64,000 nucleotides of DNA from a phage. The DNA lies in sequence record PX994957.1. One strand, given 5' to 3'. The stretch's first letter is position 1, and each line of letters opens with the position of its first letter. The notes below the pieces were generated by a model that searched no databases, was not told the origin of the DNA, and saw only the letters and a program-made list of their open reading frames with translations. Shown here one piece after another: positions 8,331 to 63,877 of the stretch. The translations under genes and the position numbers were made by a program.

Positions 8331-8360
8331 ATTATACCACATCCTTGTGGTAAAGTAAAC
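8331..8360 (-). promoter_or_regulatory. T-even early promoter for rIIA.1-rIIA-rIIB
   Basis: GTTTAC (8355-8360), 18-nt spacer, TGgTATAAT extended -10 (8331-8339); spacer dyad CCACATCCTTGTGG. Confidence 0.6.
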
Positions 8361-10177
8361 TACTGGCTCATCCATTCTTTACGAAGGTCAGCATTATCTC
8401 CCATGAGCATTTCAAAAAGCTCTTTCCAGTTCTCAGGAAGTTTAACAACATCATATACTGGATTTTGAATCATCTCACGATATTCAGATTTTTCCAAAGA
8501 GCCAAGTCCCTTAATATAACGGATGCTATGTTTAGGTAGAGCATCTTTAGCACTCTCATATTCAGCGACTGTATAAAACCATTCTTGTTTTTTACCGACC
8601 TGAGCGATGATTACAGGAGTTTTGACAAAGCGAATTCGTCCTTGCTCAAACAATTCTGGCCAATTACTAAAAAATCCGAGCAGAGAAGGATAAATGCTTC
8701 CTAGACCATCATGGTCAGCATCGGTCATAATAGCAATATTATGATAATTCAAGTTTTCAGCTTTTTCACCAAGAACTAATCCAGTGATTGCGCAAATATC
8801 AAACAGTTCTTTGTTTTTAAGCATATCAGCATATGACATACCCCAACTGTTGAGAACTTTACCACGCAATGGATAACCACCGTGAAGTTCTTTATCACGA
8901 ACATCAATAAGATATCCGATAGCAGAATCACCCTCAGTCAAGAAAAGAGTAGTGTCAGCATCTTTACCACAAAGATTCGCTTTGATATGTTTATGAACCT
9001 TAGCTTTAGAAGCCTTTTTAGCTGCTTTAGTTTCTGCCGCTTTTTCTGCTGCCAATTTACGGGCCAAGGCAGCTTCAATAATTGGCATCAAAATAGCTTC
9101 ATTATTTAGAATAGCGCGTGAAATCTTTTTAGCATCAAGTTGAATATGACTACGAATTTCGCCAAATGGAGAAGTCAAACGCTCTTTAGTCTGAGAATCA
9201 AATCGCATGTTTTTCATATCACGAACAAACATAACGATAGTCAAACATTCTTTAACACGTGCTTTAGTCACATCAATTTTGAACTTACGTTTGATTTGTG
9301 GAATAAGGTCTTCACAAATATCATCCATAACACAGTCAATGTGATGGCCACCATTCTTAGTGTGAATGTTATTCACATAAGTTAATTGACGAAATCCATC
9401 CGGTGAACGACCAACAGCAATAGAACAATTTTCTTGTTCTTGAACAATAGCATGCTCATCATATTGGCGTGCATATTTCTTAAAATTACCCTGAACCTTT
9501 TTACCATTAAAGGTAAATTGAATATCAGGATAAACGACAGCAAGTGTCTGGAGACGATCCAGTGTAATGTCAAGATAAACCTGAGACAGCTCATTAGTTT
9601 CAAATGACATAAAATCAGGAATGAAAGTAACACGAGTTCCTTTCCATTTTCCAGGAATAGTTTCCCAGGATTTATTTTCCATACCATTTGAACAACGAAC
9701 TACAATATTATTTTGACCATCGCCAGTTTCACCGACAAACATCACAGAAAAAATGTTTGTCAAACTAGAACCAACACCATTCATACCACCGGTGACGCGT
9801 TCTTTATCATCACCGAAGTTACCACCTGCTTTTGGAATAGTCCAGGCAGCAACAGGACCAGGAATTTCTTCACCGGTAGGTGTTTTAACCATCGCTTGTG
9901 GAATACCGCGACCGTTATCTTCAACTGTTACCTGATTATTTTTAATGGTAACATTAATTTTATTCGCGAATTTAAACTTAGTACGAATACCTTCATCTAC
10001 TGAGTTATCGATAATTTCATCAATAAGCTTAACAAGACCAGGTACATACTGAACACTTTCCCATTTACCAAACAGAAAGCGCTCATGCATTTCATTAGCA
10101 GAAGAGCCAATATACATGCCGCTACGCTTTTTGATATGTTCAATATCGCTCAGAATTTTAATTTCATTCTTAATCAT
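8360..10177 (-). CDS. 39: DNA topoisomerase II large subunit gp39, unsplit (no gene 60)
   Basis: 605 aa from ATG 10177 (SD GAGGATAAGTG); MIKNEIKILSDIEHIKKRSGMYIG; GHKL ATPase and TOPRIM regions contiguous in one ORF. Confidence 0.92.
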   Translation of the reverse strand: MIKNEIKILSDIEHIKKRSGMYIGSSANEMHERFLFGKWESVQYVPGLVKLIDEIIDNSVDEGIRTKFKFANKINVTIKNNQVTVEDNGRGIPQAMVKTPTGEEIPGPVAAWTIPKAGGNFGDDKERVTGGMNGVGSSLTNIFSVMFVGETGDGQNNIVVRCSNGMENKSWETIPGKWKGTRVTFIPDFMSFETNELSQVYLDITLDRLQTLAVVYPDIQFTFNGKKVQGNFKKYARQYDEHAIVQEQENCSIAVGRSPDGFRQLTYVNNIHTKNGGHHIDCVMDDICEDLIPQIKRKFKIDVTKARVKECLTIVMFVRDMKNMRFDSQTKERLTSPFGEIRSHIQLDAKKISRAILNNEAILMPIIEAALARKLAAEKAAETKAAKKASKAKVHKHIKANLCGKDADTTLFLTEGDSAIGYLIDVRDKELHGGYPLRGKVLNSWGMSYADMLKNKELFDICAITGLVLGEKAENLNYHNIAIMTDADHDGLGSIYPSLLGFFSNWPELFEQGRIRFVKTPVIIAQVGKKQEWFYTVAEYESAKDALPKHSIRYIKGLGSLEKSEYREMIQNPVYDVVKLPENWKELFEMLMGDNADLRKEWMSQ

Positions 10178-10246: not shown

Positions 10247-10507
10247 TTATTTAAAACGAATAGTTGAATCCTTAAAGAACAACCCAGAACATACTGTTCC
10301 TTCTACTTTCTGCCCAGTAGGTCCAATAGCACGAAATCCAGTATGTTGGAAATCATTTTCAGAGCAACCGAACCAATTATATCCAGTGATTTCAATATTC
10401 GTAAAACCACTCGATGATAAAATTTTAGTTGCATTATCAGCATCAGTACATCCTACTAAAGATACTGCTAATACTAATGCTGCAATAGAACGATTAATAT
10501 ATTTCAT
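10247..10507 (-). CDS. predicted lipoprotein (signal peptide + lipobox LVGC)
   Basis: 86 aa from ATG 10507; MKYINRSIAALVLAVSLVGCTD. Confidence 0.6.
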   Translation of the reverse strand: MKYINRSIAALVLAVSLVGCTDADNATKILSSSGFTNIEITGYNWFGCSENDFQHTGFRAIGPTGQKVEGTVCSGLFFKDSTIRFK

Positions 10508-10512
10508 AGTTT

Positions 10513-10887
10513 TCACTTAAATTTAATGGCTTGAAGGAGACTAATAATTCTCAAACGGCTTCTTTCATCTTTAACTGTAAAAGAAAGAGGGTCGCCAGAT
10601 TTCATAGTGATAGTGCATTCAAAATCAAAATCTTCAGGAACTTCTTCGAAGAAGTCAAATTCTTCATCATAAATTAGAACTTCACTCCGCAGACTGTGAA
10701 GAATTTTTCCAGCATTTCTGCTAGTTGCTGTACTAATCATTGTAACATTATGACCTTTCATATCTTCAACGATAAATTCGCTTGTAGATATTACGGCATT
10801 AATAGAACCATTCCTATTACTAGCAGAAAGTAGATATTTCTTTTCTTCACCTTCGCGAACACGATATTTCTTACCGATTTTAAACAT
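10513..10887 (-). CDS. hypothetical protein (39.x-type)
   Basis: 124 aa from ATG 10887 with SD AAGGGTGA; track start is GTG. Confidence 0.55.
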   Translation of the reverse strand: MFKIGKKYRVREGEEKKYLLSASNRNGSINAVISTSEFIVEDMKGHNVTMISTATSRNAGKILHSLRSEVLIYDEEFDFFEEVPEDFDFECTITMKSGDPLSFTVKDERSRLRIISLLQAIKFK

Positions 10888-10889
10888 AA

Positions 10890-11066
10890 TCACCCTTTAA
10901 GTAAATCGTAAAAACCGCCATTCACATGCTTAGGAGCAGAAGGCCGACGAGTAGACAAACGATGACATTTAGGGCAAACATCATTTTCTCGTTCAGAAAT
11001 CTTTTTAATTTTTTCATATTCATGCCCGCAATCTTCGGATTGGCATTTATAATCATACATTGGCAT
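10890..11066 (-). CDS. 58-aa zinc-ribbon protein (FmdB-like CxxC..CxxC)
   Basis: MPMYDYKCQSEDCGHEYE...CPKCHRL; ATG 11066 with SD AAGGAATAAT; absent from ORF track. Confidence 0.55.
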   Translation of the reverse strand: MPMYDYKCQSEDCGHEYEKIKKISERENDVCPKCHRLSTRRPSAPKHVNGGFYDLLKG

Positions 11067-11068
11067 AA

Positions 11069-11494
11069 TTATTCCTTAAAGTGTGCTTTCAACATCTGAT
11101 ACAAAGACCATGCCTGTTCATTATTTTCAATAGTAACTTTCATGACCGGGAATTCTGTGAAATCTTCTATTTGTTCTTGCTCTTTCTCTTCCTGCTCTTG
11201 CTCTTCAGCTGCCTGGTATGGATTTTCCACTTCATCAAAGAACACAGCTTCACTCGTTGAAAGCCAGATAAAATCTTCATCCAAAATATCTTTACCAGAA
11301 GATAACGCCAATTTTCCACTAGATGTCACAAGTTTAGTAGGACGACCAAGATAGTCAATATCTGTAACTCTAAAAGGTTCCATACCAAGACGTCGTGCAT
11401 AAATTCCGTTTTCAGTATGGTCCTTGATAAAATCTTCTTGAGCTTGTTTATTTTTAAATTGATACCATTTATTAACTTCAAATTTAATAGCCAT
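11069..11494 (-). CDS. goF: GoF-like protein
   Basis: 141 aa from ATG 11494 (SD GGAAGGAAAC), equal to T4 goF length as recalled; position between 39.x ORFs and cef. Confidence 0.6.
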
Positions 11495-12088: not shown

Positions 12089-12586
12089 TTATGCACAGCG
12101 AGCTTTGCTATAGTGTTTAATCCAGCTTTCAGGAATGACTTTGTATGTTCCTAAAAATACCGCGTTGTACAGCTTAACACCGTCTTCTACCCACTGATCG
12201 GTAATGTATGCGCACATAGCACGAGTACGGTGTTTTTGAACAACCCCTTCCTCATCTTCAGTAAATTCGAATTCATAAGGAGCAACGAACTTAATAGCCT
12301 GACCGAGTTTCCACTTAAAGTATACACCTACATGCGAAGTATCAATCGTTTCAATTCCTTTAGCAGGAACAGCTTTCAAAAACGCAGATTCAAGAAATTT
12401 CGCACGAACATAGCCAAACTGAGGTTTAGACTTTCCATCTTTAGGAATGATACGCACTTTTACTTCAGAATCTTCATCTTTAACGCCGTGTTTAAGCTGA
12501 ATGCTTACAATTTCGACCAATTTTCCTGCTGCTTTAGAACGGGATTTATCAGATACACGAGCAATTTCACCAATATTAATAATCAT
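12089..12586 (-). CDS. motB: MotB-like protein
   Basis: 165 aa (T4 MotB about 162 aa); position between cef and dexA; shares C-terminal DQW(V/I)EDGV motif with next ORF. Confidence 0.6.
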   Translation of the reverse strand: MIINIGEIARVSDKSRSKAAGKLVEIVSIQLKHGVKDEDSEVKVRIIPKDGKSKPQFGYVRAKFLESAFLKAVPAKGIETIDTSHVGVYFKWKLGQAIKFVAPYEFEFTEDEEGVVQKHRTRAMCAYITDQWVEDGVKLYNAVFLGTYKVIPESWIKHYSKARCA

Positions 12587-22109: not shown

Positions 22110-22310
22110 ATGGTACAAAAATTAATGGCACTTGTTAATGCCATAAAAGGTAATAAAAAACGTATAGCTTTTACTATTTCTGCTATGGTAGGAATTTTAC
22201 TCTGGAACTTTATTCTATCACCTGTTGCAATTGCGCATGGTATTAATATTCCAGTAGTTACTCTTGATACATTTGTAGATTTAGCATTTGCTTTAGTTGG
22301 GTTAATTTAA
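22110..22310 (+). CDS. 66-aa hydrophobic protein on the opposite strand between 56 and 61
   Basis: strong SD AAGGAGG (22099-22105) then ATG 22110; MVQKLMALVNAIKGNKKRIAFTISAMVGILLWNFILSPVAIAHG; stop interleaved with gp61 stop. Confidence 0.45.
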   Translation: MVQKLMALVNAIKGNKKRIAFTISAMVGILLWNFILSPVAIAHGINIPVVTLDTFVDLAFALVGLI

Positions 22311-23335
22311 ATCTTAGCATATTTAGATAGCCGCATTTTAGCCATCAACCCCTGGGCAATATTATTTTTCATATATTCCATAATTTGTTCAGGGGTTGCA
22401 CCTTCCTTTCTAATCATATCATTAACATCTTTTGATTTCCAGGGAGATTTATCCCAAAACATAACCCTTTCTCCTGCATCAACTAATTTAGTCATTCGCT
22501 TAATAGTGTCAGGATGACGAGGTTCATTATCTAAGACCCACACACGCCTATCTTTAAATGGAACAACTTCTAGGTCTAATTGACCACCCGTAATAGCTAT
22601 ACCATTTTCAATAAAAAGTGAATCTATAGGTCCTTCTAGAACATATACATCGCCATCTTTAACTCGTTCAACACCGTAAATTTTTGTTGCCTCAGGATAA
22701 GCTTTAATGGTGATATATTTTTGAGGAGCATCTTTCTTTAATGCACGTCCTTGAAAAGACTCAGCTTTTCCATTAGCATTATAAATTGGAATAACAAGAC
22801 GAGGCTCAGAAATTTCCTTTTTGTATGTTCCCGGTGCTATGCTATTAACTAATTTAGGCCATTCGGTTGTAAACCAAAGATATTTCCATTTATCCTTTGG
22901 AATACAACGAGCTTTTACATATTTTATAATTGGATGGTCTTCCGCCAGTTTATCTAATCTAACACACGACGGAAGAGATTTAATTATTTTCTTCTCAGGT
23001 TGTTTAGGAAGTTCTTTAGGTTTTTCTACTGGACGACTTTTACCTTTTTCTTTTCTTATTTCAAAGATATACTCACGATATAAATCGGGTTCAAACTCCT
23101 TTAAATATATTCCGATTGGTGCATGATAGTTACAGTTATAACAATGAATATTTCCTTCATTATTATCACCATAATACCATCCACGAGCTTTATTCTGATC
23201 GGTTTTTGAATCTCCACAAACAGGGCATCTAAACCGCAATTTAAAAGTTGAACTATTATTTACTTGTGTGAATTTAGGTAAATGAGCTAATGCACGATAC
23301 GCAAACTCATTATCAATCCAAGGTATTGATGACAT
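22307..23335 (-). CDS. 61: gp61 DNA primase
   Basis: 342 aa, equal to T4 gp61; N-terminal zinc ribbon CPVCGD...CYNC; TOPRIM-like VLEGPIDSL / VLDNEPRHPD. Confidence 0.9.
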   Translation of the reverse strand: MSSIPWIDNEFAYRALAHLPKFTQVNNSSTFKLRFRCPVCGDSKTDQNKARGWYYGDNNEGNIHCYNCNYHAPIGIYLKEFEPDLYREYIFEIRKEKGKSRPVEKPKELPKQPEKKIIKSLPSCVRLDKLAEDHPIIKYVKARCIPKDKWKYLWFTTEWPKLVNSIAPGTYKKEISEPRLVIPIYNANGKAESFQGRALKKDAPQKYITIKAYPEATKIYGVERVKDGDVYVLEGPIDSLFIENGIAITGGQLDLEVVPFKDRRVWVLDNEPRHPDTIKRMTKLVDAGERVMFWDKSPWKSKDVNDMIRKEGATPEQIMEYMKNNIAQGLMAKMRLSKYAKI

Positions 23336-46379: not shown

Positions 46380-46850
46380 TTAATCATGTTTCCACACCCC
46401 ATCGGTATTTGACCAAAGTCGCTGATTATCTGATCCTCGCCACAGCTTTTTGGTCGGAAGATTTTTCTCATACTTCCCATCAATAATAACATCAACATAT
46501 TTAAGCATTTCTAGTTGTTTAATATCTTCAAACTTATATCCTGTCCACAACCAAATGCTTTTACTGGGATAAAGATTTTTTACTGTTTGAACAATGCAAT
46601 GAATCACGTCTCTGTTATCAGGATAAAGAGGGTCTCCTCCAGTTATAGTTAATCCTTCTATATAATCATTATTCAAACATTCAATTAATTGTTCCAGTGT
46701 TTCACCAGTGAATGGAACGCCATTTCTAGCATTCCATGTTGATTTATTATAACACCCTTCGCATTTATGCAAACAACCTGTAACGAAAAGAACGACCCTG
46801 CAACCAGGGCCATTAACAAAATCGCAAGGATAAAATCTATCATAATTCAT
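46380..46850 (-). CDS. nrdG: NrdG anaerobic ribonucleotide reductase activase (radical SAM)
   Basis: 156 aa, equal to T4 NrdG; Cys cluster CLHKCEGC; ATG overlaps nrdD stop. Confidence 0.88.
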   Translation of the reverse strand: MNYDRFYPCDFVNGPGCRVVLFVTGCLHKCEGCYNKSTWNARNGVPFTGETLEQLIECLNNDYIEGLTITGGDPLYPDNRDVIHCIVQTVKNLYPSKSIWLWTGYKFEDIKQLEMLKYVDVIIDGKYEKNLPTKKLWRGSDNQRLWSNTDGVWKHD

Positions 46851-48664
46851 TGGTGTTTAACCCTATGCATGATTTCTTTATTTTTACCGAGATTAAATCC
46901 GCGTTCGTTCGGATTTCCCAAATAACCACATGTTCTTCTTATGGTATTCATCTTTTTAGGATCAGTTTCTCCACAAATAGAACAAACAAATCCGTTTTCA
47001 GTAGGAGTCATTTCATGGGTACTTCCACACGTAAAACATTTATCTACCGGCATATTAACACCAAAATAATCTAAATGTTGTGCGGCATAATCCCATACAG
47101 CCTCAAGACCTTTTAAGTTATTTTTCATATCAGGAAGTTCAACATAAGAAATGTGACCACCTGTCGCAATGAAATGATATGGCGCTTCACGAGAAATCTT
47201 TTCAAACGGAGTAACATTTTCTTCTACTGAAACGTGGAAACTGTTAGTGTACCAGCCTTTATCAGTAACATCCTTTACACTTCCATATTTTTCTGTATCA
47301 AGTTTACAGAAGCGATAGCAAAGGTTTTCAGCAGGAGTAGAATACAAACTAAAAGCAAACCCAGTTCTTTCAGTCCACTGTTTAAGATGAGCATTCATTT
47401 TAGTTAAAATTTCTTGTCCAATATCACGACCGATAAGAATATTCAATTCGTGAATACCAATGTATCCTAAAGACACTGAACTTCTACCGTTTTTAAATAA
47501 CTCAATTATATCGTCATCGGGTTTAAGACGAACCCCGAATGCACCTTCTTGGTAAAGAATAGGAGCAACAGTAGCTTTAATTCCTTTTAAGGAACTAATT
47601 CTACACATCAAAGCTTCAAAACATAAATCCATTCGTTCATTGAACAATTCGATAAATTTCTGTTCATTGAACTGTGTTCCAATATAAGAATCTAACGCGA
47701 TGCGAGGAAGATTCAGTGTTACAACACCAAGATTATTACGTCCATCAAGAATTTCATTACCAGTCGAATCTTTCCATACGCTCAAGAAACTACGGCAACC
47801 CATTGGAGAAACAGGAACAGATGAACCAGTGATAGCTTTATTGTTCTTAGCTGAAATAATATCAGGATACATCCTTTTGCTTGCACACTCTAAAGCAAGC
47901 TGCTTAATATCATAGTTCGGATCATCTTTATAAAGATTAACACCTTCTTCAACGAACATAACAAGCTTAGGGAAAATAGGAGTTATCCCATCACGACCAA
48001 GACCTTTAATACGATTTTTCAGAATTGCTTTCTGAATCATTCGTTCAGTCCAGTCAGTTCCCGTACCAAATGTAATTGTTACAAAAGGTGTTTGTCCGTT
48101 TGAACTAAAGAGAGTATTTACTTCATATTCATAAGCTTGGAATGCATCGTATACGTCTTTTTCTGTTTTAGATTGGGCATAATTTAACGCATCAGCGATT
48201 TGCCATTTTTCTGCATCCTCAATATGTTTTGCATAGGTGCGTTTAACATAAGGAGAAAGTACTTTATCTACATTAGCAAAAGTCGTTCCGCCGTATTGAT
48301 GGGAAGCAACCTGTGCAGTAATTTGTGCCATAATTGCAGTAGCAACACCGATTGATTTAGGAGTTTCAATCTGTGCATTACCAAGCTTAAATCCGTTCTC
48401 AAGCATTCCTTTTAAATCTACTAAACAACAATTAGTAAATGGAAGAGCAGGGGAATAATCAATATCATGGAAATGGATAATTCCGCTTTCATGCGCTTTC
48501 ATAATAAAAGACGGGACCATATTTTTGGCAATGTGTTTAGACACAATACCAGCCATAAGGTCCCGTTGAGTTGGAAAAACACGAGAATCTTTATTAGCAT
48601 TCTCGTTTAAAAGGTCTTTATTAGTTTTATGAATCAATCCTTCAATTTCTTTTTCAATTGTCAT
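46847..48664 (-). CDS. nrdD: NrdD anaerobic ribonucleotide reductase, uninterrupted
   Basis: 605 aa single ORF; C-terminal zinc site CFTCGS...CSICG and glycyl-radical region RTCGYLG. Confidence 0.92.
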   Translation of the reverse strand: MTIEKEIEGLIHKTNKDLLNENANKDSRVFPTQRDLMAGIVSKHIAKNMVPSFIMKAHESGIIHFHDIDYSPALPFTNCCLVDLKGMLENGFKLGNAQIETPKSIGVATAIMAQITAQVASHQYGGTTFANVDKVLSPYVKRTYAKHIEDAEKWQIADALNYAQSKTEKDVYDAFQAYEYEVNTLFSSNGQTPFVTITFGTGTDWTERMIQKAILKNRIKGLGRDGITPIFPKLVMFVEEGVNLYKDDPNYDIKQLALECASKRMYPDIISAKNNKAITGSSVPVSPMGCRSFLSVWKDSTGNEILDGRNNLGVVTLNLPRIALDSYIGTQFNEQKFIELFNERMDLCFEALMCRISSLKGIKATVAPILYQEGAFGVRLKPDDDIIELFKNGRSSVSLGYIGIHELNILIGRDIGQEILTKMNAHLKQWTERTGFAFSLYSTPAENLCYRFCKLDTEKYGSVKDVTDKGWYTNSFHVSVEENVTPFEKISREAPYHFIATGGHISYVELPDMKNNLKGLEAVWDYAAQHLDYFGVNMPVDKCFTCGSTHEMTPTENGFVCSICGETDPKKMNTIRRTCGYLGNPNERGFNLGKNKEIMHRVKHQ

Positions 48665-49134
48665 TTTAAACTCTTTCTAAGCTGCTTCTTAAATGAAGCT
48701 ATTAATTGTGTTTTAGTGTCAGATTCATTATATTCAAATCCTCTTTGAAGCATCTCAGCCATCATTTCCTCTTTTCCTAAACGAGAAAATTCCTTTGATT
48801 TATCTCCAACAAAGTTAGGGTGAATATTATTTTGGGTGTAATCGGATTTTAAATAAGTAAGTAAATTTTCTAACCATTCAAGATAATCAACACCTTGCCC
48901 CTTTAAGCCAGAACGATTAAATTTATGCTTCATTTGACCTTCTGCGGCATTGCAGAGATTACAAAGCAATCCACGTACCTTTCCTGCTTTTGGCCCATTT
49001 AATTCATGGTCATGATCAAGATGATTAGCTTGAACATCAGGATTTAGTTCTCGTTGGCAAATTAAGCATTTACCGTTTTGTGCATCATAAAATTTCTGTT
49101 TTTCTTCTTTATATAATTTGCCAGTCAATAACAT
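48661..49134 (-). CDS. 49: gp49 endonuclease VII (Holliday junction resolvase)
   Basis: 157 aa, equal to T4 endo VII; zinc-binding CLIC...CNLCN. Confidence 0.9.
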   Translation of the reverse strand: MLLTGKLYKEEKQKFYDAQNGKCLICQRELNPDVQANHLDHDHELNGPKAGKVRGLLCNLCNAAEGQMKHKFNRSGLKGQGVDYLEWLENLLTYLKSDYTQNNIHPNFVGDKSKEFSRLGKEEMMAEMLQRGFEYNESDTKTQLIASFKKQLRKSLK

Positions 49135-49783: not shown

Positions 49784-49993
49784 TTAACCCCGAAGCTTAT
49801 TAAGTTCTTCATCATCAATCCAGGATTCTAGTCCTGATGGCAGGTCACATTCAATTTCCCAAAGAAGTTCTTCAATTTTCTGAAGACGATCTAGTTCTTC
49901 AGCAGGAATAGTAACCATTGACGGAGCTCTTGCTACATTAATATCGTAAATCATATTTACCCCAGTTTGACCATACAATCGCCGTATTTCCAC
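49784..49993 (-). CDS. hypothetical protein (49.x-type)
   Basis: 69 aa ORF from track. Confidence 0.5.
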   Translation of the reverse strand: MEIRRLYGQTGVNMIYDINVARAPSMVTIPAEELDRLQKIEELLWEIECDLPSGLESWIDDEELNKLRG

Positions 49994-50172
49994 TTAGAAA
50001 TAGACTTTTCACCATTAGAATAATAAACTTCAAGTTTAGCACGATTATTTTTAATTTGAATAACCTTTGCTGTCATCAAAGTTCCATACCCATAATAAAC
50101 TGCAACTTCATCACCTACATATACCGCGCTTCCGCGGTAATCGTGAATATAGTCAGTTCCTTCGAGCATCAT
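49957..50172 (-). CDS. hypothetical protein (49.x-type)
   Basis: 71 aa ORF from track. Confidence 0.5.
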   Translation of the reverse strand: MMLEGTDYIHDYRGSAVYVGDEVAVYYGYGTLMTAKVIQIKNNRAKLEVYYSNGEKSISKWKYGDCMVKLG

Positions 50173-50678: not shown

Positions 50679-51068
50679 TTAATCCAAAATATTATTAGGC
50701 ATTGGTTGAACACTCACAAGTTCTTTAAAGAACTCAGTAGAGTCAGGCAATTTAACCATTTCCGGAGCATGCTTATTAAATTTATGTTTACAATGACGGC
50801 ATTTATATTCAAGCTCTGGTTTACGCCAGTTAATCAATTGAACTTGTTCAGTACCGCATTCAGGGCAATTAGGAACGTTTTTAGAAGCTCTTTCACGTCG
50901 TTCAACCATAGCCATAATAGCATCCCATGCTGGAGGTTTAAAATCTAAATCGTCGCAGCCGTGAATCTTTCCACGCATTTCCAGATCGTCTTCTTCACCA
51001 GCCATAATAATTTTAATTAGACTAGAATTACTTGAAGCTGCAATGTCTTCTAATAGACGCTTTTTCAT
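50679..51068 (-). CDS. zinc-finger protein
   Basis: 129 aa; CPECG...CRHCKH. Confidence 0.5.
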
Positions 51069-63109: not shown

Positions 63110-63295
63110 TTAAAGCGTATTCACATAAGCTATTAATTCATTTTCTTTCTTATCAAACCGATCAGCAAATTCTTCCTGCTGTTCAGGAGATAGCGGGCCG
63201 TATTCATCATAAAAGGTGTTTGCTTCTGTATGCTCATCTAGAAGTTCATGGATAAGCTCAAACAATTTATCTTTTTGTTCTTTACTCAGACTCAT
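63110..63295 (-). CDS. hypothetical acidic protein (tk.1-type)
   Basis: 61 aa; ATG 63295. Confidence 0.5.
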   Translation of the reverse strand: MSLSKEQKDKLFELIHELLDEHTEANTFYDEYGPLSPEQQEEFADRFDKKENELIAYVNTL

Positions 63296-63465
63296 ATATT
63301 AATTTCCAGGAGTTTTAAAATAATTCGCTTTTGCTTAAATATTTCCATAGTTAAATGACTAGTATCTTTTTGACCGATTCCAATGGCAAAACCTTTATTA
63401 ACAGCGAGTTCAATTAAATTATCAAGCTCACGTAACACTTCGTATTGTAACTCAAAACTATTCAT
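63292..63465 (-). CDS. 57-aa hypothetical protein
   Basis: ATG 63465 with SD AAGAAGGTAAACC; stop overlaps tk.1-type ATG (ATGA); absent from ORF track. Confidence 0.45.
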   Translation of the reverse strand: MNSFELQYEVLRELDNLIELAVNKGFAIGIGQKDTSHLTMEIFKQKRIILKLLEINI

Positions 63466-63668
63466 TTTGGTTTACCTTCTTTAACGAAATCAGGATAAGG
63501 ATAAAATCCTGAATAAAATCCTTCACCTTTATGATTGATGCATCCTTTATTAGAACAATAGCACCAATAATCGAAATCACAAGCCATTTCATCATTACAT
63601 AAAGCAAAAACAACCGGCCACTTACACTTTTCACAGTGGGCATTTTTAAGAATACTAGTTTGGCTCAT
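63462..63668 (-). CDS. Cys-rich small protein (probable zinc-binding)
   Basis: 68 aa from ATG 63668 with SD AAAGGTTACA; CEKCKW...CNDEMACDFDYWCYCSNKGC. Confidence 0.5.
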   Translation of the reverse strand: MSQTSILKNAHCEKCKWPVVFALCNDEMACDFDYWCYCSNKGCINHKGEGFYSGFYPYPDFVKEGKPK

Positions 63669-63877
63669 AACCATGTAACCTTTAAGCAATATTCTTCTAC
63701 ATGTTGTTTACGACCTTTCTTATCAATAAAGGTATATTCAACGAATGTTCCAATGTAGTCTTTATCTACATCATGTGGACTATTAATTGGACATTTAGTA
63801 CGGCAAATGCGTTCCCATTGACGAATAATTTCTGCTTTGTTTTTAGGATCAAACGGATGCGGGTAATGCACTTTCAT
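63665..63877 (-). CDS. hypothetical protein (tk.x-type)
   Basis: 70 aa; ATG 63877 with SD GGTGGATT. Confidence 0.5.
   Translation of the reverse strand: MKVHYPHPFDPKNKAEIIRQWERICRTKCPINSPHDVDKDYIGTFVEYTFIDKKGRKQHVEEYCLKVTWL

Follow-up and report, generated by a model that had tools for sequence, protein, structure and literature searches.

Three small cysteine-rich ORFs lie scattered through a 64,000-nucleotide stretch of phage DNA (PX994957.1), referred to here as the window. The first of them, ORF1, raises the question of what a 58-residue protein with paired cysteine knuckles does, and whether it belongs with the other two, ORF2 and ORF3, to one class of small zinc ribbons, as a first-pass annotation of the DNA had proposed. 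That annotation assumed a phage origin, correctly: the source is a Tequatrovirus, a T4-like coliphage. Over 1401 nt, the sequence of the ORF1 locus is the same as in Escherichia phage vB_EcoM-Sa45lw (100% identity), and wV7, RB51, and other Tequatrovirus genomes share 97 to 99.8% identity with the region around ORF1. The ORF map is that of a classical T-even early region, in which the unsplit topoisomerase gene 39, goF, cef, motB, nrdC, and tk could be mapped; the genome is AT-rich (34% GC), and 121 of about 125 putative genes lie on the minus strand. The three ORFs were recovered with the sequences originally quoted for them, all on the minus strand (Table 1). Each sits in a non-essential early-gene cluster whose content varies between T-even phages, so the description of their surroundings as accessory blocks is a fair one.

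The window was surveyed with a two-knuckle regular expression (C-x2-4-C, 8 to 40 residues, C-x2-4-C), for which residue shuffles supplied the expectation. The pattern is present more often than chance would allow: 6 of the approximately 125 putative genes carry it, where the shuffles predict 0.46, and if only genes of up to 130 aa are considered, ORF1, ORF2, and ORF3 are exactly the ones picked out, where the shuffles predict 0.32. The remaining matches are ORFs 22307-23335, 46847-48664, and 48661-49134, which, judging by gene order in T4 and by size, are probably primase gp61, NrdD, and endonuclease VII gp49. Searches with tblastn found a homologue of ORF1 in 886 phage records, of ORF2 in 1115, and of ORF3 in 778, and all three are under purifying selection, with dN/dS values of 0.03 to 0.17 against closer, moderately diverged homologues. 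Judged by this comparative evidence, all three are real genes. Sequence searches of the PDB with the three proteins returned nothing significant, and PADLOC gave no meaningful match.

Table 1. Features of the window discussed in the text; all positions are those of the 64,000-nt stretch.
Feature	Position	Strand	Basis
ORF1, ortholog of gene 39.2, 58 aa plus stop	10890-11066	minus	homology, synteny, HMM, dN/dS
ORF1 residues 1-40, predicted zinc-ribbon core (MPxYDYxC start, C8-x4-C13, C31-P-K-C34)	10947-11066	minus	Pfam match to residues 1-41, AF2
ORF1 residues 41-58, C-terminal tail with APKHVNGGFYDLLKG, conserved in T4-like 39.2 orthologs only	10893-10946	minus	
RB69ORF005c-like gene, 126 aa, immediately downstream of ORF1; not present in T4	10513-10887	minus	matches phrog_622
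goF (mRNA metabolism modulator), immediately upstream of ORF1	11069-11494	minus	
Gene 39, unsplit topoisomerase II large subunit, synteny anchor	8360-10177	minus	
ORF2, nrdC.2 ortholog, 129 aa	50679-51068	minus	T4 NrdC.2 homology, phrog_1474, synteny
ORF2 residues 66-98, ribbon-like module (C68-P-E-C71-G and C90-R-H-C93)	50775-50873	minus	
ORF3, PF23895 'Phage zinc binding domain' protein, 68 aa	63462-63668	minus	Pfam, phrog_2306
Ortholog of T4 tk.3, upstream neighbour of ORF3	63665-63877	minus	94% identity to T4 Tk.3

The product of ORF1 is MPMYDYKCQSEDCGHEYEKIKKISERENDVCPKCHRLSTRRPSAPKHVNGGFYDLLKG. The gene starts with ATG, preceded at a distance of 7 nt by AAGGA (SD sequence); its start codon lies 2 nt past the goF stop, and it is packed tightly with its neighbours. 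The gene order 39 / 39.1 / (ORF005c) / 39.2 / goF / cef agrees with that of RB51, RB69, and T4, and in RB51, RB69, RB43, and T4 the gene at the position of ORF1, adjoining goF and upstream of 39, is 39.2 or an unnamed equivalent. ORF1 aligns with Gp39.2 from resequenced T4 (MT984581) without gaps, with 47 of 58 residues identical (81%; E 5e-37), and its identity to the RB69 ortholog is 93%. Most of the 11 substitutions relative to T4 fall in the inter-knuckle loop and at residues 37 to 42. By homology and gene order, ORF1 is orthologous to T4 gene 39.2.

An ORF of only 58 codons in an AT-rich genome might nevertheless be a chance reading frame, or an annotation artefact from which no protein is made, and it could be added that the T4 reference record contains a truncated version of 45 codons. 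The pattern of conservation speaks against this. ORF1 gave dN/dS values of 0.03 to 0.09, and in the comparison with T4 dS is ∼1.35 against a dN of 0.12; 852 of the 886 phage records retain it at full length. Curated HMM thresholds are passed (see below), an SD sequence is in place, and the packing against neighbouring genes is tight; a deletion of 39.2 in T4 has a known phenotype, according to PMC5153855. On this pattern we regard the chance-ORF explanation as effectively refuted, and its probability as close to nil.

The truncated version can be traced to the T4 reference sequence (AF158101 / NC_000866, 3399-3840; compared with window 10247-11066), in which 39.2 is annotated with 45 aa and 39.1 with 65 aa. 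Resequenced T4 genomes (MT984581) have a 58-aa 39.2 and an 86-aa 39.1; compared with AF158101, they are 96.9% identical over 293 nt in the 39.2 stretch, and the stretch in the reference looks like an old sequencing error. UniProt entry Q01434 inherits the truncated 39.2. Because the reference protein ends at 45 aa, homology transfers lose the conserved tail.

Several features of the neighbourhood were recorded. Both the gene downstream of ORF1 (E 2e-30) and goF (E 6e-40) match phrog_622, while BLASTP detected no pairwise similarity between the two; they may be distant paralogs flanking 39.2. Gene 39 of the window is a single ORF of ∼605 aa, the unsplit RB51/RB69-type form, whereas the T4 region is split as 39 / mobA / 60.1 / 60, with a translational bypass in gene 60. 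In a promoter and terminator scan, promoter-like sites were no commoner than in shuffles. The strongest site in the 8- to 14-kb region is sigma-70-like (12659-12631, minus strand; TTTACA-17-TATAAT, 11/12) and lies ∼1.6 kb upstream of ORF1, just upstream of a motB-like ORF (12089-12586); the scan found no minus-strand terminator between this site and ORF1. The site, a consensus match only, could plausibly act as an early promoter from which the motB-cef-goF-39.2 run is transcribed. An early polycistronic transcript covering ORF1 would be compatible with the scan, which proves nothing in this respect.

ORF1 scored 45.7 bits with the Pfam model Zn_ribbon_8 (PF09723; cutoff 34.4) and 44.9 bits with TIGR02605, 'FmdB family zinc ribbon' (cutoff 31.3). 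By these curated HMM thresholds it is a bona fide FmdB-type zinc ribbon, as the first-pass annotation had recognized; the 'double CxxC' attributed to it there needs correction, since the cysteines are at residues 8, 13, 31, and 34, giving C-x4-C ... C-x2-C, with the first knuckle a spacing variant. An AlphaFold2 model, built on 16 sequences, has a four-stranded ribbon-like core (strands 3-8, 16-20, 28-30, and 37-41), with pLDDT values of 82 to 85 for residues 1 to 40. In a comparison with predicted viral structures, the best fold match was T4 Q01434 (39.2; E 3.6e-5, TM 0.87 by target), with numerous FmdB-type ribbons of phages ranking next; a Foldseek search of the PDB with the same model gave no significant match (best E 0.34).

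An alignment of orthologs showed strong conservation of the MP-x-Y-x-Y-x-C start, of a K-I-S-x-R segment, and of C34. The candidate ligands are C-x4-C ... C-x2-C in the T-even type, C-x2-H ... C-x2-C plus one extra Cys in the RB49 type, and C-x2-C ... C-x-C in the RB43 type. Given that the ligand set varies in this way among 39.2 orthologs, metal geometry may differ between them or matter less than assumed. Residues 1 to 40 of ORF1, a small early protein, are predicted to form a single-zinc ribbon with C8, C13, C31, and C34 as candidate ligands, and we infer that the protein binds zinc.

In the 2012 work of Ang and Georgopoulos the gene was reportedly first isolated from RB69, and its homologues from T4, RB43, and RB49 are said to have behaved alike. 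PMC5153855, citing Ang & Georgopoulos 2012 (Genetics 190:989), states that T4 Gp39.2 (NwgI) shifts GroEL towards a GroES-binding open state, a point repeated by Mattenberger et al. (PMC4396842). According to these two papers, the only experiments on an ortholog revealed an allele-specific interaction with groEL/groES, with T4 39.2 acting as a suppressor of groEL/groES alleles and being required on certain groEL mutants. This literature makes a small zinc-ribbon protein acting on host GroEL the best-supported mechanism for ORF1. By orthology, ORF1 would act on the GroEL of the host, shifting it to an open conformation able to bind either GroES or Gp31, the co-chaperonin of the phage; where the host GroEL functions poorly or is poorly matched, such a shift would assist the folding of phage proteins that depend on GroEL. 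The GroEL effect has been shown for T4 only, and we infer by analogy that the allele in the window acts on GroEL as T4 Gp39.2 does. We consider it highly probable that ORF1 is gene 39.2, acting on GroEL by orthology, and that ORF2 and ORF3 are independent small zinc-module genes.

Database records describe the protein differently. RefSeq labels its orthologs 'FmdB-like transcriptional regulator', phrog_1076 is filed under 'transcription regulation', and the first-pass annotation offered nucleic-acid-binding regulators or protein inhibitors as the common roles of small phage zinc ribbons; read in this way, ORF1 would be an FmdB-like regulator that binds nucleic acid through its ribbon. The PDB fold matches of the model do include zinc modules from RNA-polymerase-associated proteins (for example, RbpA and Rpb12/RpoP), but these are not significant (E at least 0.34). 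FmdB was named for its position beside the formamidase gene, and we know of no member of the family with a demonstrated DNA-binding function; the regulator label is inherited from the family name, not from a test. Pfam searches detected no HTH or other DNA-binding domain in ORF1, and the ortholog experiments described above point to groEL/groES instead. A regulatory role of this kind appears very unlikely to us, and we conclude, by analogy with T4 Gp39.2, that ORF1 is not a transcription factor. Of the two generic roles offered, that of a protein-directed factor fits what is reported for T4 Gp39.2, and that of a nucleic-acid-binding regulator does not. The database labels of 39.2 ('FmdB-like transcriptional regulator' and 'uncharacterized 5.1 kDa protein') are at odds with the published experiments, and their further propagation is inadvisable.

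If ORF1 acts on GroEL as its orthology predicts, the part of the protein that makes contact may lie outside the ribbon. A motif, [AK]P-x3-[VI]-x-(G/D)G[FY], is common to the C-terminal tails of T-even, RB49-type, and RB43-type orthologs and was absent among the distant FmdB proteins recovered. In the AlphaFold2 model of ORF1 the tail has low confidence (pLDDT 51 to 58), with a short helix at residues 52 to 57, and residues 41 to 58 would form a flexible tail. Since the tail is conserved across T4-like orthologs and absent in distant FmdB proteins, it is probably a clade-specific functional element that makes the contact, for which the ribbon would serve as scaffold.

The tail sequence NGGFYDLL resembles the mobile loop of GroES, AGGIVL (1AON chain O), and it is conceivable that Gp39.2 mimics the mobile loop of GroES/Gp31. 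The tail (NGG[FY]YD-hydrophobic) would then dock in the groove of the GroEL apical domain, and the ribbon would be a rigid handle only; if so, sub-stoichiometric Gp39.2 would prop GroEL open and favour co-chaperonin binding, and an excess would compete with GroES and be toxic. A 'GG plus two hydrophobic residues' pattern occurs at ∼0.34 per 1000 residues in the ORFs of the window, and we treat the resemblance, which was noticed post hoc and carries little information, as a lead only. It is unlikely, in our estimate, that the tail is such a mimic and that ORF3, separately, is a new single-zinc fold.

Over residues 1 to 99, ORF2 shares 80% identity with T4 NrdC.2, and it lies between nrdC.1 and nrdC.3, as in T4; it matches phrog_1474 (E 1.4e-44), and its dN/dS is 0.17. 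On homology and position it is the NrdC.2 ortholog. The CPECG...CRHC feature noticed in the first pass is present as a ribbon-like module, and tblastn matches of ORF2 in distant phages cover only residues ∼48 to 99, which include it. The scores with PF09723 (25.7 bits; cutoff 34.4) and TIGR02605 (24.5 bits; cutoff 31.3) are below the thresholds, and no Pfam or NCBIfam threshold was reached. ORF2 differs from T4 NrdC.2 by a 75-nt insertion at the 3' end (window 50679-50770), which gives it a 25-aa tail absent from T4; the insertion also abolishes the T4-type nrdC.2/nrdC.1 overlap.

We found no published function for NrdC.2; in an anti-OLD study, nrdC.2 only marks the boundary of the amplified locus. 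A recent report identifies Gp49.2 of T6 as an anti-OLD inhibitor. In the window, T4 49.2 and 49.3 have no tblastn match at E <1e-5, and pin, 49.1, nrdC, and nrdC.1 do match; the gap between 49.1 and nrdC (49800-50172, minus strand) holds different small ORFs, such as one of 71 aa at 49957-50172.

ORF3 is matched end to end by PF23895 at 101.2 bits (cutoff 27) and also matches phrog_2306 (E 7.5e-36); its dN/dS against phage EAWsc9 is 0.06. We counted 7 cysteines and 2 histidines, not the eight cysteines given in the first pass. An exhaustive homologue search gave 123 clusters at 50% identity. In 113 of these homologues, C12, C15, C38, and C43 never vary and H46 shows 99% conservation; many have a Cys at position 23 or 24, and conservation does not extend to C30 and C36. 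As signature of the family we obtained C-x2-C-G-W-P ... D-[YW]-W-x-Y-C-S-N-K-x-C-x-N-H-x-G. This signature, with full or nearly full conservation only of C12, C15, C38, C43, and H46, suggests a single structural site for zinc in ORF3 and not the cluster of several zinc ions implied by the raw cysteine count.

Other searches with ORF3 covered structure and domain partners. An AF2 model from 5 close sequences reached a pLDDT of 41.5 and was not used. Sequence and profile searches of the PDB found no significant relative; weak matches to a p62 ZZ domain and eL42 had E values of 0.2 to 0.8. A check for fusion partners of PF23895 returned one sub-threshold fusion to HTH_31 (P0076) and nothing firm on function, and the long Cys-rich proteins P0102 and P0147 gave no PF23895 match in Pfam.

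An assignment of ORF3 as T4 Tk.3 was rejected: the two gave no BLASTP alignment, and T4 Tk.3 matches the adjacent gene instead (Table 1). No ORF3 homologue was found in the T4 tk region, and some records mislabel ORF3 homologues as Tk.3. The ORF beside tk (63110-63295, minus strand) is 54% identical to T4 Tk.2, rather than Tk.1, and nothing in the window matches T4 Tk.1; compared with T4, therefore, the tk-vs cluster has been rearranged. A 57-aa ORF at 63292-63465 (minus strand) also lies in this cluster.

Could the three ORFs nevertheless be paralogs, belonging to a single family of small zinc-ribbon factors for host takeover? Each of them carries paired Cys knuckles and is located in a variable early-gene cluster, and the Zn_ribbon_8 score of ORF2, although below threshold, could be counted in favour. 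BLASTP rejected the idea, however: ORF1 and ORF2 share only a 4-residue CPxC (E 0.48), ORF1 and ORF3 gave nothing, and there was no similarity beyond the generic knuckle. The proteins belong to different Pfam and PHROG families, and their conserved motifs differ (MPxYxYxC in one case and CxxCGWP...YCSNKxCxNHxG in the other). We rate a common family as extremely unlikely; as far as sequence comparison can tell, these are three independent genes and not a system. The profile search that the first-pass annotation had proposed as a check placed ORF1 (PF09723) and ORF3 (PF23895) above the Pfam cutoffs and ORF2 below. A generic knuckle is what remains of the proposed class of small zinc ribbons; in the absence of detectable homology among ORF1, ORF2, and ORF3, the grouping is only superficial.

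ORF2 and ORF3 most likely each encode a small factor whose binding partner is a protein of the host or of the phage. The gene represented by ORF1 is already known and has been characterized in T4, and ORF2 and ORF3 belong to catalogued families; with ORF1 a near-identical ortholog of a T4 gene characterized in 2012, the locus carries little weight as a discovery. NrdC.2 and PF23895 proteins are widespread, strongly constrained putative small zinc proteins of T4-like phages, and are reasonable candidates for host-factor pull-downs.

ORF1 can be compared with three known systems. It shares with the FmdB / Zn_ribbon_8 family (PF09723; TIGR02605, 'CxxC_CxxC_SSSS') the MP-x-Y-x-Y-x-C start and the CP-x-C second knuckle. 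The first knuckle is C-x2-C in the family but C-x4-C in ORF1, and the tail motif of ORF1, AP-x3-[VI]-x-GG[FY]YD, is absent from the distant members recovered. GroES and T4 Gp31 are functional analogues, in that all act on GroEL, ORF1 doing so by orthology. They form a heptameric β-barrel lid, whereas ORF1 would be a monomer-sized ribbon without sequence or fold homology to them, and Gp39.2 is described, in the reports cited above, as favouring co-chaperonin binding and not replacing it. The closest counterpart is T4 Gp39.2 (NwgI), which agrees with ORF1 in its locus beside goF, its length of 58 aa, its C-x4-C / C-x2-C cysteines, and an identical C-terminal APKHVNGGFYDLLKG; the T4 locus differs from that of the window, where an extra 126-aa gene lies between 39.2 and 39.1.
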